DNA from: a virus
Lineage: Duplodnaviria; Heunggongvirae; Uroviricota; Caudoviricetes
Length of the DNA stretch: 13,692 nucleotides
IMG/VR virus record: IMGVR_UViG_2660238346_000020
Strand: one strand, 5' to 3'
Both the position numbers and the translations under genes were made by a program. The notes under the pieces are model-generated. The model saw nothing but the letters and a program-made list of their open reading frames with translations. It searched no databases and had not been told where the DNA came from. This document shows, in pieces, positions 1 through 13,692 of the stretch; positions within the stretch are counted from its first letter, which is position 1; the number at the start of each line of letters is the position of its first letter.

Positions 1-277
1 AGAACGCCTTATCCGGCCTACGGGAACAGTGCTTTTTGTGGGCCTGATAAGATGCGTTAAGCGTCGCATCAGGCATTATGGCGCAGTTGCCGGATGCGGC
101 GAGAACGCCTTATCCGGCCTACGGGAACAGTGCTTTTTGTGGGCCTGATAAGATGCGTTAAGCGTCGCATCAGGCATTATGGCGCAGTTGCCGGATGCGG
201 CATGAACGCCTTATCCGGCCTACGGGAACAGTGCTTTTTGTGGGCCTGATAAGACGCGTTAAGCGTCGCATCAGGCA
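1..277. repeat. Tandem REP/BIME-type repeats: about 2.7 copies of a ~101-bp unit (copies begin at 1, 102, 203), each containing two palindromic REP-like elements
   Basis: Direct: near-identical 101-bp units repeat at period 101, with point differences (gatgcg vs gacgcg; gagaacg vs catgaacg). Each unit holds the imperfect palindromes gcctgataagatgcgttaagcgtcgcatcaggc and gccggatgcggcg...cgccttatccggc, typical of E. coli REP sequences. The first copy may be cut by the window edge. Confidence 0.85.
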
Positions 278-283
278 ACAAAC

Positions 284-589
284 TCACGGGTGAGCCACAA
301 ACCGGGAAAGCCGCTGGCGCAGCAGGCGGTTTTCCTGCTTCAGGTGCGCAATATCATCCATTAACGTCAGCGCCACCGCGATCCCCGGCCAGTCCAGAGC
401 CAGTTCATGACGCAGGCGTACCGCGCGTTGCACCACAATGGCGGCATGGTCGTCAAATACCCAGGTTGTCTCCTGGATCTCACTCGGTTCAACCACCCCC
501 AAACCGACAATTTCATTCAACTCCTCTTCAGAGATGCCGGTATGCAGGCAAAATTCGGTAATAGTAAAAGTCACCGTAACATTAGCCAT
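284..589 (-). CDS. cbpM: CbpM, chaperone modulator of CbpA (101 aa)
   Basis: Translation [33 protein letters not shown]... matches CbpM as I recall it. ATG at 587-589 chosen over the upstream TTG of the listed ORF. Its ATG overlaps the cbpA stop (TAATG), the conserved cbpA-cbpM arrangement. Confidence 0.88.
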
Positions 590-1509
590 TATGCTTTCCC
601 CCAATCTTTACGTGGATCAAAAGACGACTGGGCGTCTGCCAGTTGCTGCCACAGCGCGGCAGTGTTTTCATCCGGTTTCGGCGGCATCACGATTTTCAGT
701 ACCGCATACAGATCGCCGGTCTGTTTTTTGCTCACCAGACCTTTGCCTTTAACGCGCAATCGTTGCCCGGCCTGGCTGCCAGGCGGGATAGTCAGCAAAA
801 TGCTTTCTTTCAGTGTTGGAACGGTGACTTTAGTACCCAGCGCCGCTTCCCACGGGCTAACCGGCACCACTATTTCCAGATCCTGGCCGACAATATCAAA
901 CAGCGGATGTGGCGCAATGTGAATCACCAGCCACAGGTCGCCATTTGGACCGCCGTTTTCGCCCGGCGTCCCCTGGCCTTTCAGGCGGATGCGTTGACCA
1001 TTGCCGACGCCCGCCGGGATCTTCACATTCAGCGTTTTCGGGATTTCCTGTTCGATCATGCCAAAGGCGTTATAAACCGGCAGGTTATAGCTGATGGTAC
1101 GCTTATGCTCAGTAAGCGTTTCTTCGAGGAATACCGCCACTTCGATTTCAATATCGTGGCCGCGTGTGGCGGGGCGTTGACGGCTCTGGCGGGCATGCTG
1201 ACCGAAAATTGACGAGAAGATATCGTCAAAATCTTCGGCGTTAAAACTCTGACCGTCGCCATGATGGAACTGACGGTTAAATTGCGGATCGTTGCGATGT
1301 TGCCACATCTGATCATACTCAGCGCGACGTTGTTCATCACTTAACACTTCCCAGGCTTCAGCGACCTCTTTGAAGCGGGCTTCGGCATCAGGTTCTTTGC
1401 TGACATCAGGATGGTATTTGCGGGCCAGTCGACGATAGGCGGTCTTGATTGTCTTGAGATCGTCCGTCGGTTTCACGCCCATGATGGCGTAATAATCCTT
1501 TAATTCCAT
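589..1509 (-). CDS. cbpA: Curved DNA-binding protein CbpA, DnaJ-family co-chaperone (306 aa)
   Basis: N-terminal J domain (DYYAIMGV...[32 protein letters not shown] with HPD motif) followed by DnaJ-like C-terminal domains; full-length ORF. Confidence 0.95.
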
Positions 1510-2043
1510 AGCGTTATCTCGCGTAAATCAACACAAATTGAAGGAACCCCTGTAAGGTAACTCCTATAAGTGTAGGGTAATCCTCAAAATTTCATATGCC
1601 AACACAGAATATGTTATTGAAATCATCGCGGAGGGGAGGTCGCCTCAAGGTGGGAGGAACATATTTTATTTACCTCACTCCTGAACTTTTGGCTCATGCT
1701 TACAAGTTAAACAATAAGGAAAGGAATGCACAACTCGACTATTTAAATCGTTATGCAATTTAATGATAAAGACATGTGCTAAAAACCATTTCTATTAGTC
1801 TCACATTCTTTTTTTATTGGTAATGGTAACGCCGCTGATTTTCTTTATAGCTACTGATGTAATCATTAGCGGCGTAAACGAGGCCGGGGCTAATCAGGCA
1901 TAGTTTGCGTCAAAACTTGCCTGTTTTTAAAGGGGAATATAGAAAAACAGGCGTTCAACGAGCCATTTTGCGAACCTGTTCCCGGAAAAATGACATATTT
2001 CTGTCACACTCTTTAATTATTGATAACAAAAGAGGTGTGAGGA
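1510..2043. promoter_or_regulatory. Divergent intergenic region that must carry the cbpA (leftward) and agp (rightward) promoters; AT-rich tract about 1690-1830
   Basis: Inference from divergent gene orientation and a 534-bp non-coding gap. No convincing -35/-10 pair identified by eye. agp has a good RBS (gaggtgtgagga before ATG 2044). Confidence 0.4.
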
Positions 2044-3285
2044 ATGAACAAAACGCTAATCGCCGCAACTGTAGCAGGGATAGTTTTACTCGCTTCAAAT
2101 GCTCAGGCACAAACCGTACCGGAAGGCTATCAGCTACAGCAAGTGCTCATGATGAGCCGCCATAACTTACGTGCGCCGCTGGCGAACAATGGCAGTGTGC
2201 TGGAGCAGTCGACGCCGAATAAATGGCCTGAATGGGACGTCCCCGGTGGGCAGCTCACCACTAAAGGGGGCGTGCTCGAAGTGTATATGGGCCATTATAT
2301 GCGTGAATGGCTGGCAGAACAGGGGATGGTGAAATCAGGGGAATGCCCGCCACCGGACACCGTTTATGCCTATGCCAATAGTCTGCAACGCACCGTCGCG
2401 ACCGCGCAGTTCTTTATTACTGGCGCATTCCCTGGGTGTGATATTCCTGTTCATCACCAGGAAAAAATGGGCACTATGGACCCCACCTTTAACCCAGTGA
2501 TCACCGATGATTCCGCCGCATTCAGTGAACAGGCGGTGGCGGCAATGGAGAAAGAGCTCAGCAAACTCCAGCTTACCGACAGCTACAAGCTACTGGAACA
2601 AATCGTTAACTATAAAGATTCTCCTGCGTGTAAAGAGAAGCAACAATGTTCGCTTGTAGATGGCAAAAATACCTTTAGCGCGAAGTATCAACAAGAACCG
2701 GGCGTTTCCGGGCCGCTGAAAGTCGGCAACTCGCTGGTAGATGCGTTTACTTTGCAATACTACGAAGGTTTTCCGATGGATCAGGTGGCCTGGGGAGAAA
2801 TCAAATCTGACCAGCAGTGGAAGGTGTTGTCGAAGCTGAAAAACGGTTACCAGGACAGCCTGTTTACCTCACCGGAAGTGGCGCGCAATGTTGCGAAACC
2901 GCTGGTCAGTTATATCGACAAAGCCCTGGTCACCGATCGCACCAGTGCACCGAAAATCACGGTATTAGTTGGGCACGACTCCAACATTGCCTCTCTGTTA
3001 ACGGCGCTGGATTTCAAACCGTATCAGTTGCATGACCAGAACGAACGCACGCCGATTGGCGGCAAAATCGTTTTCCAGCGTTGGCATGACAGCAAAGCCA
3101 ATCGCGACCTGATGAAAATTGAATATGTGTACCAGAGTGCGGAACAGTTACGTAATGCCGATGCGTTAACCCTGCAGGTACCTGCGCAGCGCGTGACGCT
3201 GGAATTAAGCGGTTGCCCGATAGATGCCAACGGTTTTTGCCCAATGGATAAGTTTGATAGCGTATTGAATGAAGCGGTGAAATAA
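2044..3285 (+). CDS. agp: Periplasmic glucose-1-phosphatase, histidine acid phosphatase family (413 aa)
   Basis: N-terminal signal peptide ([22 protein letters not shown]) and histidine acid phosphatase active-site motif RHNLRAP; full-length match to Agp as recalled. Confidence 0.95.
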
Positions 3286-3292
3286 CAGAAAA

Positions 3293-3315
3293 CTCCCCCG
3301 CGTGAAGCGGGGGAG
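3293..3315 (-). terminator. Stem-loop between convergent agp and yccJ; intrinsic terminator mainly for the minus-strand yccJ-wrbA transcript
   Basis: Direct: ctcccccgc (3293-3301), loop gtgaa, gcgggggag (3307-3315), a 9-bp GC-rich stem. On the minus strand the stem is followed by TTTTCTGTT; on the plus strand the trailing tract is less U-rich. Confidence 0.6.
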
Positions 3316-3322
3316 TCGCTGG

Positions 3323-3550
3323 TTAAACGTTTTTACGTTCGATGGTCTGTTCGCCCCAAAAAAGCGAATCTTTATCGGTCTTAGCAAAGGCTTTGACTAA
3401 CACTTCATCGCTACCTTCTTCCCAAATCTTTTCCGCCATTTTTTCGTCGTACCCGGCGACTTCGAAAATGGCCTCGGCTATTTCCGGCGACGTATTGCGC
3501 AGAGATGCCCATTCACCGACGTGATGAGCTTTCGCTTCTTGAGTTGGCAT
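3323..3550 (-). CDS. yccJ: YccJ, small conserved protein of unknown function (75 aa)
   Basis: Full-length [40 protein letters not shown]... with AGGAGG RBS, directly downstream of wrbA as in E. coli. Confidence 0.88.
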
Positions 3551-3570
3551 GCGTATCCTCCTGTTGAAGA

Positions 3571-4149
3571 TTAGCCGTTAAGTTTAACTGCCAGACCTGC
3601 GACATATTCCCCTTGATAACGAGCAATAGACAGTTCTTCCTGGCTGGGCTGGCGTGAACCGTCACCGCCTGCGATGGTGGTTGCGCCGTACGGCGTACCG
3701 CCGCGAACCTGTGAAACGTCAAATAATTCCTGCGCTGCGTAGCCAATGGGGACAATCACCATGCCGTGATGCGCAAGGGTCGTCCAGGTGGATGTGATGG
3801 TTTGTTCCTGACCGCCGCCAGTACCGGTGGAACTAAAGACGCTCGCCAGTTTTCCGTATAGTGCGCCGGAAGCCCACAGGCCGCCCGTCTGGTCGAGGAA
3901 GGTACGCATTTGACCGGACATGTTACCAAAGCGGGTAGGTGTACCAAAAATAATGGCGTCGTAATCGGCCAGTTCTTGCGGGGTTGCAACCGGTGCAGTT
4001 TGCGTTTTACCGCCTGCTTTTTCAAATAATTGCGGCGGCATGGTTTCCGGTACACGCTTAACGACAACTTCTGCGCCATCCACTTTGCTTGCACCCTCAG
4101 CAACTGCGCGTGCCATCGTTTCAACATGTCTAAGGATATGCTTTATCAT
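3571..4149 (-). CDS. wrbA: WrbA NAD(P)H:quinone oxidoreductase (flavodoxin-like) with a prophage-derived replacement N-terminus (192 aa)
   Basis: From [37 protein letters not shown]... to the C-terminus it reads as WrbA. The first residues MIKHILRHV replace the canonical MAKVLVLYYSMYGHI recalled for K-12, which contains the flavodoxin FMN phosphate-binding loop. The ORF is intact but the product is probably non-functional or altered. Confidence 0.8.
4112..4131. other. Approximate prophage/host junction (att core) inside the 5' end of wrbA
   Basis: Inference: the sequence leftward of about 4125 matches the recalled K-12 wrbA 5' coding sequence (ttgaaacgatggcacgcgcagttgctgagggtgc on the minus strand); rightward of about 4130 it diverges and runs straight into the integrase 3' end. 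Exact core limits need alignment to an uninterrupted wrbA. Confidence 0.5.
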
Positions 4150-5456
4150 TTTGAAAAATATAATTTTATTTCATCCTCCTGGTCACTTTGGGGCACGTCT
4201 GGGGCACGGGCATTAAGGACATTATTCAGCATAGCAACCTGAGTCACGCTGCACTCAGGCATCCATGCACCATAAACATTGTAGACCATGCTGGCGCTGG
4301 AGTGCCCCATCTGTGATGCAATAAATGTCGGGTTTGCTCCGGCAGATAAAGCCCAGCACGCATAAGTATGGCGTGACTGATATGCTTTCCGGGCTCTTAT
4401 ACCCGCTCTTTTCATTGCTGAGTCCCATGTTGCCCCGATGGAGCTTACCGCATAGTTAATACCCGCCTTGTGATTCTTGCGAACGATTTGCGGACAGAAA
4501 ACAAAAGTGCACTCGTGCAAAATTGTTCTTCCGTACTCGCGTAATTTAACGGTGATCTGATGCTGCCTGCCAAGACGAGTAAGCATCGCCTGGTTTTTAA
4601 GTGCTTCAATGGCTGGTGCCAGAAGATGTATAACCCGGTCGGTGCCAGCATCAGTCTTTGGTAGCGTAAAATCACCTATTTTTGTAAAATTTCTTCGCAC
4701 TGTTATCGTGCCAACTTTCAGGTCGATATCCTCCCATGCAAGTGCGGCAATTTCACCATGTCGCATCCCCGTAAAAACAGCCACTGTCCAGAGGTTTTTG
4801 GTCTGTTGATGATGACAGGCATCAATGAGGCGACCAAACTCCTCTCTGGTCAGTGGATCTGGCACAGGTTTTGATTTCCTCAGTGGTGTTATTGAATTAA
4901 ACGGGTTTTTCTCCAGATACCCGTTTTCAGCGGCAAAGCTGAACATCCCGGCAGTTGTTGTCATGTAATAGTTTACCGTGGGGACTGTTCTTCCTTTGTT
5001 GGTGGAAGTGTTTTTCCTGCTTTCCTTTTCCCCAGTCAGTAAATCTTTCCTGATGAACAGCAAATCCTCTTTTGTAATCGAGGATGCCAGTCTACCCACG
5101 CCAAGCCTCGGTAGCATATTTTTCATCACTGATTGATAACGATTTAAGGCGTTACTACTGATTTCCATTGCTTTCAGAGTAAGCCATTTCTGTGCCAGTT
5201 CACCGACGGTGATATCTTTTTTTACCAGGCCAAATAGCTTCAGGTTAGGTGAGTCAGGGAATCGCTCGGCATAATCAAACGTTCCTGTTCTGATTGCAAA
5301 GCAGACCGAAGCCCTTAACTCACCAGCGATCTTTCTGTTTTTCGGTGTATCGGGCACGCGAAGATTTTCGCGCACTCGTTTACCCCTGTACTTAAACGTT
5401 ATTCGGAGTTTTCCTCCGTGATTTTCAACGCCGGCTGGATAGGCTGAATTCGCCAT
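4146..5456 (-). CDS. int: Phage integrase, tyrosine site-specific recombinase (436 aa from the ATG at 5456)
   Basis: C-terminal catalytic region with the conserved recombinase residues ([11 protein letters not shown]; SRHTYACW...[13 protein letters not shown]). ATG at 5454-5456 has a strong AGGAGG RBS 4 nt upstream; the listed ORF extends 8 codons further to a GTG. The stop TGA overlaps the wrbA ATG. Confidence 0.9.
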
Positions 5457-5508
5457 TGTTCCTCCTGCGTCCAAGAGCACGCTCAGGTTATACTCTTATG
5501 GACAAGAA

Positions 5509-5793
5509 TTAAACATCCTGAGATGGTAAGGGTTGGTTTTTAATCCAGGTGTTGATGGTAGGAAGATGATAGAGACATTCGCTGTTTTTCTTTGGCGTTC
5601 CGTCGGGGGCGATTTGTTTATATTCTCTGCCGTTCATCCACGCAGCGTCCCTGGCGCGTAATATGGTTCCTTTTCTCAGGCCTGTTACAGCCATTAAAAG
5701 CTCCAGTGTTACCCATTCATTCGCATTTATCTGTACAACAGGTGTGATGACTGGTTGAATGCCATGGCTATGTTGGTTTACGAACTCGCGCAT
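5509..5793 (-). CDS. xis: Putative excisionase / small DNA-binding protein immediately upstream of int (94 aa)
   Basis: Position directly upstream of int on the same strand, small size, basic residues (LRKGTILRARDAAWMNGREY). The assignment is positional; no strong sequence match recalled. Confidence 0.55.
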   Translation of the reverse strand: MREFVNQHSHGIQPVITPVVQINANEWVTLELLMAVTGLRKGTILRARDAAWMNGREYKQIAPDGTPKKNSECLYHLPTINTWIKNQPLPSQDV

Positions 5794-5810
5794 AAGTTAC
5801 CTCCGCATAT

Positions 5811-5837
5811 GTAAGAAAAAACCGCCCGAAGGCGGTT
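5811..5837 (-). terminator. Intrinsic terminator on the minus strand between orf86 and xis
   Basis: Direct: aaccgcc (5820-5826), loop cgaa, ggcggtt (5831-5837). On the minus strand the stem is followed by TTTTCT. Confidence 0.6.
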
Positions 5838-5838
5838 G

Positions 5839-6099
5839 TCAGTTGATTGATGTGCGGCGCATTTTTCGAAGGCTGGCAATATGCTTTTCCTTCTCAATTT
5901 CCGCTTTAATCATATGTAGTTCGTTGTGATCGATTCGCTCAAATTCTGCATTAAATGAGTTAATTGATGCGGCTCTGGTTTTCCCATCCAGCCTTCGGAA
6001 GATCACCTGTGTCAGCGTTACCTTGCAGACTTGAACCGGATAGTTGTTGGCGTCGACGAAGGACTGCCCGCGCTGGATCAGAACGAACACAGGTAGCAT
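5839..6099 (-). CDS. Hypothetical small phage protein in the xis-exo accessory slot (86 aa)
   Basis: ORF in the position lambda uses for the ea/orf60a accessory genes. The AAGGA Shine-Dalgarno abuts the ATG with no spacer, so the start (or the gene) is uncertain. Confidence 0.35.
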   Translation of the reverse strand: MLPVFVLIQRGQSFVDANNYPVQVCKVTLTQVIFRRLDGKTRAASINSFNAEFERIDHNELHMIKAEIEKEKHIASLRKMRRTSIN

Positions 6100-6137
6100 T
6101 CCTTAATTGTCATATCATTTGCACCTCGTTGCTACGG

Positions 6138-6813
6138 CTATCGCCATTGCTCCCCAAATACAAAACCAATTTCAGCCAGTGCCTCGTCCATTTTTTCGAT
6201 GAACTCCGGTACCATTTCGTCAAAAACCTCCATGTATTTTTCATCCCGTTCGACCACGACATAATGCAGGCCTTCACGCTTCATACGCGGGTCATAGTTG
6301 GCAAAGTACCAGGCATCTTTTCGCGTCACCCACATGCTGCACCTGGGCCATGTAAGCCGACTTTATGGCCTCGAAACCACCGAGCCGGAATTTCATGAAA
6401 TCCCGGGAGGTAAACGGGCATTTCAGTTCAAGGCCGTTGCCGTCACTGCATAAACCATCGGGAGAGCAGGCGGTGCGCATACTTTCGTCGCGATAGATGA
6501 TCGGGGATTCAGTAACATTCACGCCGGAAGTGAACTCAAAGAGGGCTCTGGCGTCGTTCTCGTACTGTTTTCCCCAGGCCAGCGCTTTAGCGTTAACTTC
6601 CGGAGCCACACCGGTGCAAACCTCAGCCAGCAGGGTGTGGAAGTAGGACATTTTCATGTCAGGCCATTTCTTTCCTGAGCGGGGTTTTGCTATCACGTTG
6701 TGAACTTCTGAAGCGGTGATGACGCCGAGCCGTAATTTGTGCCACGCATCATCCCCCTGTTCGACAGCTCTCACGTCGATCCCTGTACGTTGCAGGATAA
6801 TGTCCGGTGTCAT
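6138..6813 (-). pseudogene. exo: Lambda-type exonuclease (Red-alpha, exo) disrupted by a frameshift near 6335/6336
   Basis: ORF 6292..6813 encodes Exo residues [31 protein letters not shown]...SAYMAQVQ and then runs out of frame ([14 protein letters not shown]). ORF 6138..6335 in another frame encodes the Exo C-terminus [27 protein letters not shown]...[10 protein letters not shown]. Against lambda exo as recalled (..AQVQYSMWVTRK..), about 5 nt (tacag) are missing between cag and catg. Confidence 0.8.
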
Positions 6814-7595
6814 GCTGCTACCTTCTGCTCTGTGACTTTCTGTTTCAGGAATCCAAGAACCTTCACAGCTTCAGCCTGTGTTAGTTCTGAAGATGTGTAA
6901 ATGTTGCGGCGAAAAATCTGGGAACAGAGCGGCAACAGGTCGTCATCCCACGTTTTTTCCATGGAAGTAAGAAGGGCGTTAATTTCCGACATGGTTTCTT
7001 CGTTAACCGGGGTGATGTCGCGTTCCGGCTGACGTTCTGTAGTATATGCAGTATTTTCGACAATACGCTCGGCTTCATCCTTGTCATAGATGCCAGCAAA
7101 TCCGAAGGCCAGGCGAGCACACTGAATCATGGCTTTGTGCCGTAACATCCGTTTGGGATGCGACTGCCACGGTCCGGTGATTTCTCTGCCTTCGCGGGTT
7201 TTGAATGGTGTGCGGCGACATTCATCCATCCACTCGGTAACGCAGATCGGGTGATTGCGATCTTTGCGGTAAATCCGGCATGTACAGGACTCATTGTCCT
7301 GCTCAAAGTCCATGCCATCAAACTGCTGGTTTTCATTGATAATGCGGGACCAGCCATCAACGCCAACCACCGGAACGATGCCGTTCTGCTTGTCAGGGAA
7401 GGCGTAAATTTCTTTCGTCCAGGGATTAAGGCCGTACTGGTTGGCGACGATCAACAATGCGATAAATTGCGCATCGCTGGCATCACCTTTAAATGCCGTC
7501 TGGCGAAGAGTGGTGATTAGTTCCTGTGGGTCGACAGAATCCATGCCGACACGTTCAGCCAGCTTCCCTGCCAGCGTTGCGAGTGCTGTACTCAT
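6810..7595 (-). CDS. bet: Red-beta single-strand annealing protein Bet (261 aa), intact
   Basis: Near-identical over its full length to lambda Bet as recalled ([66 protein letters not shown]...KVAA). The stop overlaps the exo ATG (ATGA). Confidence 0.95.
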
Positions 7596-7600
7596 CCGTT

Positions 7601-7897
7601 TTATACCTCTGAATCAATATTAATTTGGTGACGGGCGATGGTTTCAGCCATGTAGCGGATGTGTTCTGCCATGCGTTCCTGAAAATCGACATCGTCATCA
7701 AATGCACGGGAAATAGCTTTTTTGCTGGCCCCGTGACGTTGCAGATTATCGATGCATAGCGATTCAAACAGGTGTTGGGGCAGACCTTTTTCCAGGTCGT
7801 CTGCCAGCTCAGCTTCAGTTTCTTCACGGGCAATTTGCTGGTAGTGTCGTGCCCATGACTGCTCTTCAATGCGATCGGGGATAAGCCAGGCATTCAT
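7601..7897 (-). CDS. gam: Gam, RecBCD inhibitor (98 aa, GamS-length form)
   Basis: Matches lambda Gam (..[44 protein letters not shown]...[24 protein letters not shown]). Confidence 0.92.
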
Positions 7898-9033
7898 GAT
7901 TTATCACCTCCGAAATTTTCAAGCCTGTTGGCAATCATGATGGCGATATCAGGGATTGCTGGCGCTGTGGCTATACATGCGGGGTTGGCGCACAAACCAT
8001 AGACGGCGGCAATCACGAGCTGTCTTTTCCAGTCGAGAGTTACTGGCTCAGAATTGGCGTCATCGCCGGACGTATCACTGCCTGGCTCGTTCTGAACAAC
8101 GGTTTCGCCCTCCTGAGCGGCATCAACAGAGTTTTCCTGAATGATCTTCTCCTCAGTTTGTGCTGAGTCTTCTCCATCAGCGGCGTCATTTTCTCCAAAA
8201 GTTTCTGTGTAAGTGCTATCGCCCATTACCGCACTACAGTCAGGGCAGTTACCCCCGCCAGTCTGACCACAGACGCGGCAGTTTTTTTCCAGCTCCGGTT
8301 GCGCTACTGGCCCTGGCTGTTGCTCTTCTGGCCCGTTTTGTTGCGTATCCGGGCTGTTTTGTCCCGCTTCTGGGGCAATTTGTTCCACTTTGGACTGATT
8401 CTGGTCCTCAGTGTCGCGAGTCTGGATCCCCTTCACCCACTTCGGATCAGCAGGGTTACTGATGCCTTCAACGAATTCTCCACGCGAGGCAGCCAGTAAT
8501 TTGTCGGCATCGACTGGATTTTTTGGGGGGATGTTTTCCCTGGCTTTATTGAGTTCCTCCCTCAGTTCCTGGTATTTCGTTTCTACAGATGAGACATTTT
8601 CCAGTGATTGCGTGTCCTCATTATGTTTAACTGGAATTTCTTCCACTGATTCAGGCGCTGCCTGTTCATTAGCCATTGTGTCCGATGCTTGTTGCTTTTC
8701 TTCATCGCCATGTTTTCCTTCTGCTGTTCCGCGCTGCGGCATCGGTGCTGATGAGCGACCGCAGGCAATTTCCACGATTTCCGGATCCGGGTTAGCGTGA
8801 TCGGTTTCGGTCAACACTTTGTTGAGATATTCAGTCACGCGTGCCGGGATGGCCTCAATGCCGATTGGTGCTTCTTTCACGGAAGCCACCACAATGGCGC
8901 GGGAATAATCCAGCCCACCGGGCATGGCGATAAATTTGTCGCGAAAAACAGAAAAGGGCGGCTTATTCTCTGACACGATTTCTTCAACGCGTTTTGCGTG
9001 TGCTGGGTGCAGGTTATAAATATCCACATCCAT
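7894..9033 (-). CDS. Hypothetical phage accessory protein, 379 aa: N-terminal domain, long acidic/Gln/Pro-rich low-complexity region, CxxC-x7-CxxC zinc-ribbon-like motif, hydrophobic C-terminal segment
   Basis: Long ORF whose stop overlaps the gam ATG (ATGA), implying co-transcription and coupling. Motif [15 protein letters not shown] encoded at about 8230-8290. No recognisable family. The frame stays open a further 50 codons upstream (to 9183) with no start codon. Confidence 0.55.
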
Positions 9034-9249
9034 TGAACGGGCCAGAACGCCGGTGGCTACATCTCGTGCGAGTGATGTCTTATCATGTTTGAATCCTTCA
9101 CCACGATCGGTAATATTTCCGCCGCCAGCGTTAGCACCGGAAGGCGTACGGGTAATGCCTGAAACATAATTTCCGTAAAGCAGTCAGGACACTTACTTGC
9201 TCTTTTATGAACACTCTTTTATGAAAATTGAAACGGAGAATACTGCCAG

Positions 9250-10650
9250 ATGAGTCATCAGTGTTCACTTTCTGAACTGAATGAAAACCTGGTGCCTTTC
9301 ACTGCCAGGCAGATTAAGTCCTCATTAATCTGGTGTGCAGAGGATGTCAGAAATCCAGACGAGCTGCAAAATGCCTGCAGTTATATTATCGATCCTGGCA
9401 GTACAGCTTCTGCCAAAGTGTTCCATGCAGAGCGCTATGGTGGCAGTGGTATTCAGCGTAATGGAGGTGGTGCACGTTGTGGGTTTGATGGTAACTACCA
9501 GGTTAAAGGAATAGGAAGTAATCCGTTGGTTGGCGAAGGTACTGACGAACGTCATTCTAATGGTGCACTCGGCGCTGTTCATGCAATATATGAGGCTTTG
9601 TGGGGAGAAGTACTGGCTCAAATATTACCTTATAGTGCTGTGCGGGTTCGGGCGGTTTTACTTACAGATCTCTATACTGAAAAGGCATTTGAGCGCTCCG
9701 GTAGGAAATCACGAAGAGCCCTGTTGGTACGTGAGCCTGTTGTTCGCCCGGCGCATTTTGAACGGGCACCTTACTTCCAAGTAAAACCGGAGTATTCCAG
9801 TCAGTTAATTCACGATGCCTGTCGGGTTAGATCTGTGATCCACAAGCTGCCAGGATATCTACCTGTACCACCGGAAGAAATTGATGCTGAAGCACGAACT
9901 GATCCCCGGATTTATTGCATTGAGGGGTTATGTGAACTGGCACGTCGTGAGGCCTGGCAAATGGCATTTTGTCGAACACGTTTCCTGAGATTGACAACTT
10001 CTCCTTCTAATATTGCAATGGATGGCAGATTAATGGATTTTAACGGACTCAGTTGTCTGTTTCCGGGAGATTCCCCAGCTGATTTTGGGTATAAACTAAG
10101 ATTAGCTGAACTGGCAAAAGAACCGATGGTACTTATGCAAGGGCTGTCTGATCTCTGCTTGTATATCGGAAAATATATGTTTGACCCTGACTTCACTCTT
10201 GCAGCCCGTTTGAAGGTTGAGGAGATATTTCAGAAAACTTTTCATGAAGCATGTTATTACTGTTATCTAGAACTGTTGGGTATTCCTGGAGAATTTATAA
10301 CACAAAAAGAGATACCTGATATATTGAAAGAACTGGTTAACAGTTTTGTTGCATTACTCAATAAATACTGCGAGAAATCACATGCCCAAGATATTGTCAA
10401 TCAGGATGGTTCACCATTGCAAAAGTTGGTTGTGACGCTAATCCATCATAGGCATAATCAAAAGCAGGCACTGAATAGTAGCATCAAGAATGATGTTTAT
10501 TTCACCGTTGCACAACAGTGTTTTTCCCAGGCCATCCACTGGCTGACGCAAGGCAGTACCAGACGTCAGATAAATGCCTCATTACTCCTGAAAGAAATTG
10601 AACATCATACCATGAAAAGGCTGCAACCCAGGGAAGAGCTGAGGAAATAG
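9250..10650 (+). CDS. mchC: Microcin maturation protein, MchC/MceJ-like (466 aa); assignment by operon context
   Basis: Large ORF with SD (acggag) immediately upstream of the HlyC-family acyltransferase gene and the CvaA/CvaB-family exporter genes, the arrangement of siderophore-microcin (H47/M/E492) clusters. I cannot confirm homology from memory of the MchC sequence. Confidence 0.5.
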   Translation: MSHQCSLSELNENLVPFTARQIKSSLIWCAEDVRNPDELQNACSYIIDPGSTASAKVFHAERYGGSGIQRNGGGARCGFDGNYQVKGIGSNPLVGEGTDERHSNGALGAVHAIYEALWGEVLAQILPYSAVRVRAVLLTDLYTEKAFERSGRKSRRALLVREPVVRPAHFERAPYFQVKPEYSSQLIHDACRVRSVIHKLPGYLPVPPEEIDAEARTDPRIYCIEGLCELARREAWQMAFCRTRFLRLTTSPSNIAMDGRLMDFNGLSCLFPGDSPADFGYKLRLAELAKEPMVLMQGLSDLCLYIGKYMFDPDFTLAARLKVEEIFQKTFHEACYYCYLELLGIPGEFITQKEIPDILKELVNSFVALLNKYCEKSHAQDIVNQDGSPLQKLVVTLIHHRHNQKQALNSSIKNDVYFTVAQQCFSQAIHWLTQGSTRRQINASLLLKEIEHHTMKRLQPREELRK

Positions 10651-10653
10651 AAT

Positions 10654-10800
10654 ATGTGCGAAAAAATTGCCATCCTGCTGGATAATCATGGCGATGATCC
10701 CCTTTTTTTACAAGAAGCAATTTCTGATATGAAAAATTTTATGCTTAAGTTTTCCAGAGATGCATTTGGATATCTTGAACCGATAAGAAACACAGTGTAA
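10654..10800 (+). CDS. Unlisted 48-aa ORF between mchC-like and mchD-like genes (MCEKIAILLDNHGDDPLFLQEAISDMKNFMLKFSRDAFGYLEPIRNTV)
   Basis: Direct: ATG 3 nt after the mchC stop with GAGGAAA 7 nt upstream; ends 25 nt before the mchD ATG. Below the length cutoff of the ORF track. No double-glycine leader and no Gly/Ser-rich core, so it does not look like a microcin precursor. Confidence 0.3.
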   Translation: MCEKIAILLDNHGDDPLFLQEAISDMKNFMLKFSRDAFGYLEPIRNTV

Positions 10801-10825
10801 TAAATATATAAGGGAAATAGTAATC

Positions 10826-11278
10826 ATGTCTTATATAAGGGAAACCATCAGAGGAAAAGATGAATGGACTGTTTATGAACAGATCGGTTTTGCGGTCAGT
10901 TGTATGCTCTACAATCGTAATTACAGTCTGTATCCGGTGTTAACCATTCAATACTGGACTGAATATGCGATACAGCATAATCAGATTAAATTCCTGTTTG
11001 ATTCACGAGGTTTTCCACTGGCGTATATTACTTGGGCATATCTTGAGGCTGATACAGAAGCGCGCCTGCTCAGGGATCCAGAATTCAGGTTGCATCCGTC
11101 TGAATGGAATGAAGATGGAAGGATCTGGATTCTGGATTTCTGTTGTAAACCAGGCTTTGGTCGAAAAGTTATTGACTATCTCATACAGCTTCAGCCATGG
11201 GGAGAAGGAGAAGTACGATGGTTAAGCAGGCGAAAGAAAATTGTGACATACATCCCTGAGCGGCTGCATAAAACGTAG
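10826..11278 (+). CDS. mchD: HlyC/toxin-activating acyltransferase family protein, MchD/MceI-like microcin maturation factor (150 aa)
   Basis: Alignable by eye to HlyC: AIQHNQIKFLFDSRGFPLAYITWAYLEADTE vs HlyC [30 protein letters not shown], and WNEDGRIWILDFCCKPGFG vs W.SGDRKWFIDWIAPFG. No RTX toxin gene nearby, consistent with the microcin-type paralogue. Confidence 0.7.
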   Translation: MSYIRETIRGKDEWTVYEQIGFAVSCMLYNRNYSLYPVLTIQYWTEYAIQHNQIKFLFDSRGFPLAYITWAYLEADTEARLLRDPEFRLHPSEWNEDGRIWILDFCCKPGFGRKVIDYLIQLQPWGEGEVRWLSRRKKIVTYIPERLHKT

Positions 11279-11430: not shown

Positions 11431-12705
11431 TTGTTTCTTCAGGATGCTTTAGAAAACAGAAAAATGAAGTGGCAGGGACGGGCAATATTACTTCCCGGAA
11501 TACCACTATGGTTAATCATGCTGGGAAGCATAGTGTTTATTACGGCATTTCTGATGTTCATTATTGTTGGTACCTATAGCCGCCGTGTTAATGTCAGTGG
11601 TGAGGTCACAACCTGGCCAAGAGCTGTCAATATATATTCAGGTGTACAGGGATTTGTTGTCAGGCAGTTTGTTCATGAAGGACAGTTGATAAAAAAAGGG
11701 GATCCTGTTTATCTGATTGACATCAGTAAAAGTACACGTAGTGGTATTGTCACTGATAATCATCGTCGGGATATAGAAAACCAGCTGGTTCGTGTGGACA
11801 ACATTATTTCCCGTCTGGAAGAAAGTAAAAAAATAACGCTAGATACCCTGGAAAAACAACGCCTGCAATACACAGATGCGTTTCGTTGCTCATCAGATAT
11901 TATACAGCGTGCAGAGGAAGGGATAAAAATAATGAAAAACAATATGGAGAATTACAGAAACTATCAGACAAAAGGGCTGATTAATAAAGATCAGTTAACT
12001 AACCAGGTGGCATTATATTATCAGCAACAAAACAATCTTCTTAGCCTGAGCGGACAGAACGAACAGAATGCCCTGCAGATAACCACTCTGGAGAGTCAGA
12101 TTCAAACTCAGGCAGCAGATTTTGATAACCGTATCTACCAGATGGAACTGCAACGGTACGAGTTACAGAAAGAACTGGTTAACACTGATGTGGAGGGCGA
12201 AATCATTATCCGGGCGTTGACTGACGGGAAAGTTGACTCCCTGAGTGTCACTGTCGGGCAAATGGTCAATACCGGAGACAGCCTTCTGCAGGTTATTCCT
12301 GAGAACATTGAAAATTATTATCTTATTCTCTGGGTCCCGAATGATGCTGTTCCTTATATTTCGGCTGGTGACAAAGTGAATATTCGTTATGAAGCCTTTC
12401 CGGCAGAAAAATTTGGGCAGTTCTCTGCTACGGTTAAAACTATATCCAGGACTCCTGCGTCAACACAGGAAATGTTGACCTATAAGGGAGCACCACAGAA
12501 TACGCCGGGCGCCTCTGTTCCCTGGTATAAAGTCATTGCGATGCCTGAAAAGCAGATTATCAGATATGGCGAAAAATACCTCCCTCTGGAAAATGGAATG
12601 AAAGCCGAAAGTACACTATTTCTGGAAAAAAGGCGTATTTACCAGTGGATGCTTTCTCCTTTCTATGACATGAAACACAGTGCAACAGGACCGCTCAATG
12701 ACTAA
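11431..12705 (+). CDS. mchE: CvaA/MchE-family membrane fusion protein (HlyD family) of the microcin type I secretion system (424 aa from the TTG start)
   Basis: Near-identical to CvaA as recalled (M F . [56 protein letters not shown]...). N-terminal TM helix then coiled-coil periplasmic domain. AGGAG RBS 6 nt before the TTG. The 3' end overlaps the mchF ATG by 8 nt. Confidence 0.9.
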
Positions 12706-13471
12706 CGGGAATTTCAGACAAATTATAAATCAGCTTGATATGCGCTGGCGACGTCGTGTTCCGGTTATTCATCAGACGGAGACCGCTGAATGTGGACTGG
12801 CCTGCCTGGCAATGATATGCGGTCATTTTGGTAAGAATATTGACCTGATATCTCTTCGCCGGAAGTTTAATCTCTCGGCCCGTGGAGCAAACCTTGCAGG
12901 AATCAATGGAATAGCGGAGCAGCTGGGGATGGTCACCCGGGCTCTTTCACTGGAGCTGAATGAGCTTGGTGCCCTCAAAATGCCGTGTATTCTCCACTGG
13001 GATTTCAGTCACTTCGTCGTGCTGGTCAGCGTAAAGCGTAACCGTTATGTACTGCATGATCCGGCCAGAGGCAGAAGATATCTCGGTCGGGAGGAAATGA
13101 GCCGGTATTTTACGGGCATTGCACTGGAGGTCTGGCCCGGAAGTGAATTCCAGGCGGAAACCCAGCAGACCCGCATAAGTCTCCGTTCACTGATTAACAG
13201 TATTTACGGTATTAAAAGAACACTGGCGAAAATTTTCTGTCTGTCAGTTGTAATTGAAGCAATCAATCTGGTAATGCCGGTGGGGACTCAGCTGGTTATG
13301 GATCATGCGATTCCGGCGGGGGACAGAGGGCTGCTGACGCTTATTTCTGCTGGCCTTATGTTCTTTATATTGCTCAAGGCCGCGGTGAGTATGCTGCGTG
13401 CATGGTCCTCACTAGTTATGAGCACGCTCATCAATGTACAGTGGCAGTCGGTGATGCTGCCAACTTACTGA
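12698..13471 (+). pseudogene. mchF: CvaB/MchF-family bacteriocin ABC transporter, 5' fragment only: C39 peptidase domain and first TM region (about 251 native codons), truncated by IS1
   Basis: [50 protein letters not shown]... (C39 catalytic Cys in ECGLAC and His in HFVVL) matches CvaB through ...LINVQWQS. From 13450 the frame reads IS1 terminal sequence (VMLPTY*). Transmembrane and ATPase domains are absent from the window. Confidence 0.88.
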
Positions 13472-13692
13472 TTTAGTGTATGATGGTGTTTTTGAGGTGC
13501 TCCAGTGGCTTCTGTTTCTATCAGCTGTCCCTCCTGTTCAGCTACTGACGGGGTGGTGCGTAACGGCAAAAGCACCGCCGGACATCAGCGCTATCTCTGC
13601 TCTCACTGCCGTAAAACATGGCAACTGCAGTTCAATTACACCGCTTCTCAACCTGGTACGCACCAGAAAAGCATTGATATGGCCATGAATGG
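13450..13692 (+). mobile_element. IS1 insertion sequence, left end with terminal inverted repeat; continues beyond the window
   Basis: Direct: GGTGATGCTGCCAACTTACTGATTTAGTGTATGATGGTGTTTTTGAGGTGCTCCAGTGGCTTCTGTTTCTATCAGCTG is the canonical IS1 terminus and insA upstream region. Confidence 0.92.
13505..13692 (+). CDS. insA: IS1 InsA (partial, runs off window end); GTG start
   Basis: Translation [63 protein letters not shown] matches InsA, with two substitutions against the variant I recall. Not in the ORF track because no stop lies within the window; the listed ORF 13476..13688 is in a different frame. Confidence 0.88.

Follow-up and report, generated by a model that had tools for sequence, protein, structure and literature searches.

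Lambdoid prophages of the Shiga toxin (Stx) type (Sepvirinae), e.g. PPwrbA_EH2201 and the Stx1a- and Stx2a-converting phages, integrate into the wrbA gene of Escherichia coli and keep wrbA open by means of phage-borne codons. In the cryptic prophages of E. coli K-12 (Rac, DLP12, Qin and e14), the int-proximal arm is kept, most of the phage has been deleted, and there are extra point and insertion sequence (IS) lesions. The microcin H47/M island has the gene order mchS3-mchI-mchB-mchC-mchD-mchE-mchF-mcmA in strains 95-3322, CU42ET-1 and AHB3, and truncated mch clusters occur in other strains, e.g. CFT073. We analyzed a stretch of 13,692 bp (IMG/VR record IMGVR_UViG_2660238346_000020), a contig from an E. 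coli draft assembly that is referred to below as the window. Its positions 4131-9176 are the attL-proximal arm of a wrbA-integrated lambdoid prophage, and this arm meets a remnant of the microcin H47 locus at an abrupt joint that is free of homology. The most economical explanation of the joint is a real and recent deletion in a sub-lineage, possibly sequenced from a mixed or contaminated culture. We place the probability of a real deletion, either clonal or present in a subpopulation, at roughly 0.55.

The window shares its integration site with the Stx-type prophages of wrbA, and its int-xis segment is 94.6% identical to theirs. However, it retains only about 5 kb of the approximately 60 kb of such an element, lacks stx as well as the immunity, replication, lysis and structural genes, and has a recombination module derived from a different mosaic partner (PhiR5_2/JNEC-KY204 type). 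With respect to the H47/M island, the segment from mchC to mchF is 99.2-99.9% identical and has the same order and spacing, whereas of the part upstream of mchC only the last 72 bp of the mchB-mchC spacer remain, codon 467 of mchC is a stop and IS1 interrupts mchF. Unlike in the cryptic prophages of K-12, the deletion, if real, leaves the prophage and crosses approximately 36-43 kb of chromosome into a neighboring island.

The initial annotation, made from the sequence alone, had proposed a deletion or recombination junction near 9180-9250. An abrupt joint does exist, but the ends of homology place it slightly further to the left, at 9176/9178. The features that meet there are as follows.

7894-9176, minus strand: 3' 62% of a RecE-family gene (approximately 427 of 690 codons), matching NCBIfam PRK09709 positions 241-598 of 877
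7894-9033, minus strand: 'orf379', the stretch after an internal Met, as seen from the reading frame of full-length homologs
9176-9182: the joint, with the last phage base at 9176 and mch sequence from 9178
9178-9249, plus strand: last 72 bp of the native mchB-mchC spacer, by identity to mch islands
9250-10650, plus strand: mchC (NCBI name MchC), nonsense-mutated by a G>T change at 10648

Homology to every phage relative ends at 9176. Up to this base, the identity is 100% over 2,974 bp to a contig of a sister isolate (L017) and 99.9% to another contig (L023). The native phage sequence, which reads ...TTTCCGT as far as the breakpoint, continues beyond it as TCTGCCATTC..., and the sister contig CDQW01000224.1 continues recE. 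From 9178 onward, the window is 99.86% identical to the intact island of strain 95-3322. The native mch spacer, as found for example in the Logan contig ERR13951951_76 and in strain 95-3322, reads ...TAATAAGGAAG to the left of the breakpoint and AAGCTGTCAGG... to the right of it. Base 9177 is an A matching neither parent, and base 9182 is also an A, where all other mch sequences examined have T; bases 9170-9182 of the window are unreliable. When placed in register, the two parents share at most 2 nt (GC at 9180-9181). No shared k-mer or microhomology longer than 9 nt was found within several hundred bases of the breakpoints, nor was any IS end, attachment (att) site or repeat found at the joint, and the single IS1 copy lies at the far end of the mch segment.

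A pair of hexamers upstream of mchC (TTGCTC and TATGAA, separated by 17 nt) had been noted as a weak sigma-70-like promoter. The pair exists, but it belongs to the native mch spacer and was not created by the joint, and a standard sigma-70 scan at and near the joint returned no sites at standard thresholds.

The frame designated 'orf379' is not a gene of its own, and its predicted product is a homolog of the N-terminal part of exonuclease VIII without the nuclease domain. Full genes of this type (2,073 bp, 690 aa), annotated as RecE-family or exodeoxyribonuclease VIII, were found in L003 (8045-10117), in phage PhiR5_2 and in L017. The full-length protein matches positions 1-598 of 877 of PRK09709, i.e. 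its N-terminal, non-nuclease part, and contains a PF06630 region at residues 56-197. The window fragment comprises residues ~264-690 only, and a Pfam scan of this fragment gave no match. Since the full-length homologs have 690 aa and run on upstream, the joint must sit inside the gene. No homolog starting at the ATG at 9033 was found; the homologs extend further upstream. Both the stretch of 50 codons that precedes this ATG without any ATG, GTG or TTG and the stop located about 65 bp from the start of mchC are real, and the suspected loss of the true 5' end proved correct, with 263 of 690 codons gone.

In other strains with the same wrbA prophage (L026 and L027, 4871-7558), IS1 has inserted at the 5' end of recE, of which 643 aa remain, and directly abuts cro; a separate event removed the kil-N-cI region in these strains. 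This is a precedent for independent decay of the same gene.

On the other side of the joint, mchC has the strand originally assigned to it, and the microcin locus is indeed present next to the prophage. It is, however, itself truncated and defective: mch homology starts 72 bp before mchC, and no mchX, mchI or mchB was found upstream of mchC in the window. In the reference islands, mchB ends 272 bp before mchC and is preceded by mchS3 and mchI. The mchB-mchC spacer has a G+C content of 23%.

The relative positions of the two loci were established in two complete genomes, 95-3322 and CU42ET-1, in which mchC lies downstream of wrbA in the order and orientation seen in the window, and the mch genes are 99.8-99.9% identical. 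In 95-3322, wrbA (minus strand) is located at 1,184,289 and mchC (plus strand) at 1,220,814, i.e. 36 kb apart; in CU42ET-1, the corresponding positions are 1,904,809 and 1,948,185, and the distance is 43 kb. The shared order is torD, cbpM, cbpA, agp, yccJ, wrbA (minus strand), ymdF, rut, putAP, efeUOB, phoH (with pga and dgcT in some cases) and an island integrase, followed further on by mchS3, mchI, mchB and mchC (plus strand). In the window, the left flank of the upstream locus is followed, with orientation unchanged, by the right flank of the downstream one, and this is the polarity of a simple deletion. Given this distance and orientation, one homology-independent deletion of approximately 80-100 kb would give the joint; this size assumes a prophage of about 60 kb, as estimated from 61-kb phage records. 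We estimate the chance that a random chimeric join would be this close and collinear at about 1%. The lack of an IS element, an att copy or a shared sequence of at least 10 nt near the breakpoints fits illegitimate recombination. The same joint is also present in a second, non-identical contig, CDRO01000207.1 (13,719 bp). A tandem duplication or IS1-mediated transposition, which would place novel and native junctions in one genome, was rejected in view of the deletion-type polarity and the absence of an IS end. The proposal that a deletion or recombination had joined the prophage to the island is thus upheld as regards its geometry in 95-3322 and CU42ET-1. Endpoints, truncation of both partners and collinearity follow directly from these comparisons; the joint itself may be present in all cells of the isolate, in a subpopulation or only in the assembly.

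The deletion would have started from the state found in relatives, with a lambdoid prophage of about 60 kb in wrbA and, 36-43 kb downstream and equally oriented, the H47 island. One break would have fallen within the recE-family gene of the phage and the other 72 bp before mchC, and the two ends would have been joined with the probable loss of (i) the first 263 of the 690 recE codons, (ii) dicB/kil, N, cI, cro, the replication genes, Q, the lysis and morphogenesis genes and attR, (iii) the 5' stub of wrbA, ymdF, rut, putAP, efeUOB and phoH (and, in strains that have them, pga and dgcT) and (iv) the left portion of the island up to and including mchS3, mchI and mchB. We give an even chance to this scenario in its complete form, namely that in a sub-lineage of E. 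coli one homology-independent deletion of ~80-100 kb took the lytic and regulatory part of the prophage, the rut/put/efe/phoH(/pga) genes and the structural and immunity genes of H47, and left an int-xis-bet-gam stub fused to mchCDEF'. Such a deletion would be recent, because near-identical sisters lack it.

The prophage stub would be unable to excise, because it has no attR, and in the absence of the repressor/N/pL region it could be neither induced nor expressed from pL. The mch remnant is predicted to be unable to make or export microcin, since mchB and mchI are missing, mchC contains a stop and mchF is cut by IS1. If the joint is real, the int, xis, bet and gam genes no longer have their phage promoter context, although they are full-length open reading frames (ORFs). 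Irrespective of whether the joint is real, the locus contains no working system.

Of the alternatives, an assembly artefact survives best; we regard it as a tangible possibility, although a doubtful one. According to this explanation, a phage contig ending in recE and an mch contig ending in the 23%-G+C spacer were joined by scaffolding, gap filling or a few chimeric fragments, and the isolate keeps an intact recE, a complete or longer prophage and the native mchI-mchB-mchC segment, as its sisters do. The following observations weigh in this direction and against a deletion. The joint was found in a single further contig, CDRO01000207.1 (assembly GCA_001373195.1), which reads CATAANNNNCGNNNCTGTCAGG at this place. 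The Ns in this reading are the only ones in its 13.7 kb; compared with the window, 2 bases are missing from it at the joint and position 9182 is the native T, not A, while the remainder differs only in three IS1 bases. From a clonal junction, a clean and identical reading would be expected, so the Ns and the disagreement in length and base weigh against one, and the bases 9177 and 9182 of the window, unlike either parent, count on the same side. GCA_001373195.1 also has a separate contig (L013, 1,958 bp) that duplicates positions 9178-11126 and carries 9 nt of the native mch spacer. In another sister assembly, GCA_000936715.1, the contig L017 is 100% identical to window 6203-9176 and continues for 1,488 bp through the 690-aa recE gene and dicB; the mch sequence of that assembly is on another contig (L011), with 74 nt of native spacer. 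The native upstream spacer is carried by L010, L011, L014 and L015, all of them sister mch contigs. The sisters share the 5-bp deletion in exo, the mchC nonsense mutation and the IS1 insertion in mchF, and therefore belong to the same clone.

The quality of the assemblies points the same way. Contig numbers above 1,400-2,600 mark them as poor, and the sister mch contigs all start 9-74 nt into the AT-rich spacer (74 nt in L011 and 9-58 nt in the others), which is thus a habitual contig end. A second copy of the mchB-mchC spacer was considered as a cause of these contig ends and native overhangs, and was rejected, as none is present in three island sequences. One sister contig (L012, CDRA01000722.1) is at positions 1-464 a four-piece chimera ending in the same 23%-G+C spacer: pieces of 137-173 bp derive from a zot-domain gene, a phage head spike-fibre gene and the core gene ydiJ, and are followed by mch spacer sequence 28 bp upstream of the joint of the window. 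In members of the wider lineage known from independent data (L033-L035), this mchC allele is still preceded by mchI-mchB. None of 5,426 complete E. coli genomes contains the joint or spans both of its sides, and the exact 38-nt joint sequence had no match among the GTDB species representatives, a result of little weight given one genome per species. Taken together, the Ns, the mismatch between both versions of the joint, the two bases found in neither parent and the duplicate native contig suggest that the reads are heterogeneous at the joint or support it weakly.

Several observations are nevertheless difficult to reconcile with an artefact. A random mis-join rarely links chromosomal neighbors in the single orientation that a deletion would produce, the same endpoints occur in two non-identical contigs, position 9176 is not a contig end in the sister assembly, and there is no shared k-mer able to collapse the two loci.

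A real deletion with a wrongly placed right endpoint is unlikely; the true joint would then lie a little further upstream in the AT-rich spacer, or a short unsequenced segment would sit between 9176 and 9178, and the gap would have been closed wrongly. Ns with inconsistent length at the joint, the native overhang of L013 and the 23%-G+C spacer in which sister contigs end would all suit such an error, whereas the window has no spacer sequence before 9178 and its phage sequence is clean to 9176. Least probable is a real adjacency produced by dedicated recombination (Int/Xis acting at a secondary att site, an IS1 adjacent deletion, or Red (Exo/Bet) or RecA acting between repeats), for despite the full-length int and xis ORFs, the IS1 located 4.3 kb to the right inside mchF and the IS1 truncation of the same recE gene in L026 and L027, the joint has no IS end (IS1 being at the far end of the mch segment), there is no att-like sequence besides attL, the parents share no more than 2 nt at the joint and nothing of at least 10 nt within several hundred bases, and exo is frameshifted.

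Whether it arose by deletion or in the assembly, the locus represents ordinary decay of a prophage and an island, or the joining of draft sequences, and is best left out of counts of prophages and of microcin producers. For 'orf379', the appropriate annotation is a recE-family pseudogene truncated at its 5' end, and exo, mchC and mchF are likewise to be annotated as pseudogenes. If the deletion is true, the isolate also lacks rut, put, efe and phoH, which would make a useful lineage marker, and the locus would be a dated, clone-level case of a prophage and a neighboring island domesticated or erased in a single event. Abrupt junctions in highly fragmented drafts need read-level confirmation before they are interpreted biologically. 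A literature search on wrbA, microcin H47 and prophage together returned only an unrelated comparison of Shiga toxin-producing E. coli.

The prophage arm to the left of the recE fragment contains the following genes.

4146-5480, minus strand: tyrosine integrase of wrbA-integrating lambdoid phages (Pfam Arm-DNA-bind_2 and Phage_integrase)
5509-5793, minus strand: xis, excisionase (Pfam DUF1233)
5839-6099, minus strand: 'orf86', a DUF4222 protein (Pfam DUF4222)
6138-6813, minus strand: exo pseudogene, lambda exonuclease (Pfam YqaJ), with a 5-bp deletion at ~6337
6810-7595, minus strand: bet, full length (Pfam RecT)
7601-7897, minus strand: gam, host-nuclease inhibitor, full length (Pfam Gam)

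The view that only the int-to-gam arm of a lambdoid prophage is present was borne out by the Pfam matches, which identified all the listed genes at the places assigned to them; of the genes named in the initial annotation, exo is a pseudogene and 'orf379' a fragment of the 690-aa RecE-family gene. A scan of the window also agreed with the statement that the rest of the phage is missing: no kil, N, cI, cro, replication, lysis, structural or morphogenesis genes follow 'orf379', and there is no stx either. In relatives with the same integrase and an undisrupted early region, dicB/kil, N, cI, cro and cII come directly after the recE gene.

Translation of the integrase gives 436 aa with the ATG at 5456 as the start codon and 444 aa with the GTG at 5480. 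Proteins identical to the 436-aa form are indexed in 953 blocks of the annotated collection, and in each of the 10 places listed wrbA is the adjoining gene. Downstream of the integrase gene, xis, DUF4222, exo and gam are present in all 10 of these places, and bet and the recE gene are called in 9. The Red-type module exo-bet-gam is present in the lambda order. From position 5817, the segment DUF4222-exo-bet-gam-recE is 99.7% identical to a JNEC-KY204 prophage (located next to ynfG) and 97.4% identical to Escherichia phage PhiR5_2, with the same gene order. These two elements differ from the window in having an exo of 226 aa and a recE of 690 aa followed by kil, N, cI and cro, as well as a different integrase (1,164 bp) and another integration site.

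The 5-bp deletion splits the 226-aa exo gene, which is intact in relatives, into ORFs of 173 and 65 aa. The 173-aa product was found only on seven contigs, all from draft assemblies and six of them from sister isolates, and is therefore usable as a clone marker. At the exo/bet overlap, two sister contig ends (L016, 1-100, and L020, 1-300; window 6585-6873) carry the same variant bases, which points to a putative second, paralogous lambdoid recombination module in the clone. Such a module would complicate the assembly of the exo/bet region.

To the right of mchC, the remainder of the microcin locus consists of the following features.

10826-11278, plus strand: mchD, HlyC-like acyltransferase family (domain and island comparison)
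11431-12705, plus strand: mchE, HlyD-type adaptor (domain and island comparison)
12698-13451, plus strand: 5' third of mchF, cut by IS1 (C39 peptidase domain and first part of the membrane domain)
13450-13692, plus strand: left end of IS1 (inverted repeat GGTGATGCTGCCAACTTACTGAT and insA start), within which the contig stops

All four genes from mchC to mchF are recognizable, with 99.9% DNA identity, although mchC contains a nonsense mutation and mchF is cut by IS1. The mchC product has 466 aa instead of 516 aa, the native end of the gene would be at 10800, and a 48-aa ORF spans the former C-terminus of MchC. The 466-aa form of mchC also occurs on independent Logan and ENA contigs with native mchI-mchB upstream. 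The IS1 inverted repeat is located at 13450-13472, and the element cuts mchF at 13449-13451, after 251 native codons, creating a fusion ORF of 257 aa that ends at 13471. This fusion ORF is present in 28 blocks of the collection, and the IS1 insertion is therefore older than the phage-mch joint. Both partners of the joint were already decaying, as seen from the exo frameshift, the mchC nonsense mutation and the insertion in mchF.

In two ENA metagenome contigs with the same mchF::IS1 allele (L037 and L039), identity to the window breaks within mchD, at the equivalent of position 10956. Upstream of the break, L037 has an ORF with an HTH_Tnp_1 (transposase-type) domain and L039 a partial ORF, which suggests a possible further mobile-element insertion.

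At its left side, the window (35-4130) consists of E. coli chromosome with cbpM, cbpA, agp, yccJ and wrbA, and is 99.4% identical, without gaps, to strain 95-3322. The boundary with the prophage is formed by two features.

3571-4149, minus strand: wrbA (Pfam FMN_red), with the first codons supplied by the prophage end; 192 aa compared with 198 aa in the intact protein
4114-4130: attL flank/core, with the chromosome/prophage boundary at 4130/4131

Identity to the intact wrbA of strain 95-3322 ends at 4130. The prophage end (4131-4149) provides wrbA with a substitute start and first codons, and the int stop overlaps the wrbA start. Records of wrbA-type phages annotate a 7-bp insertion duplication at the attL flank. 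No second copy of the att flank (attR) was found in the window, the sole copy being that at 4114-4130.

Three tandem units of 101 nt with repetitive extragenic palindromic (REP)-like sequence occupy positions 1-303, in the torD-cbpM spacer; the second and third are 99% and 76% identical to the first. Both 13.7-kb contigs, i.e. the window and CDRO01000207.1, start at the same base within this array. Between cbpA and agp (1510-2043), yccE is absent and a short spacer of low G+C content (38-44%) is left. The same short cbpA-agp spacer, with a yccE remnant annotated in it, is present in 95-3322 and CU42ET-1, and other relatives have a yccE of 417-419 aa.

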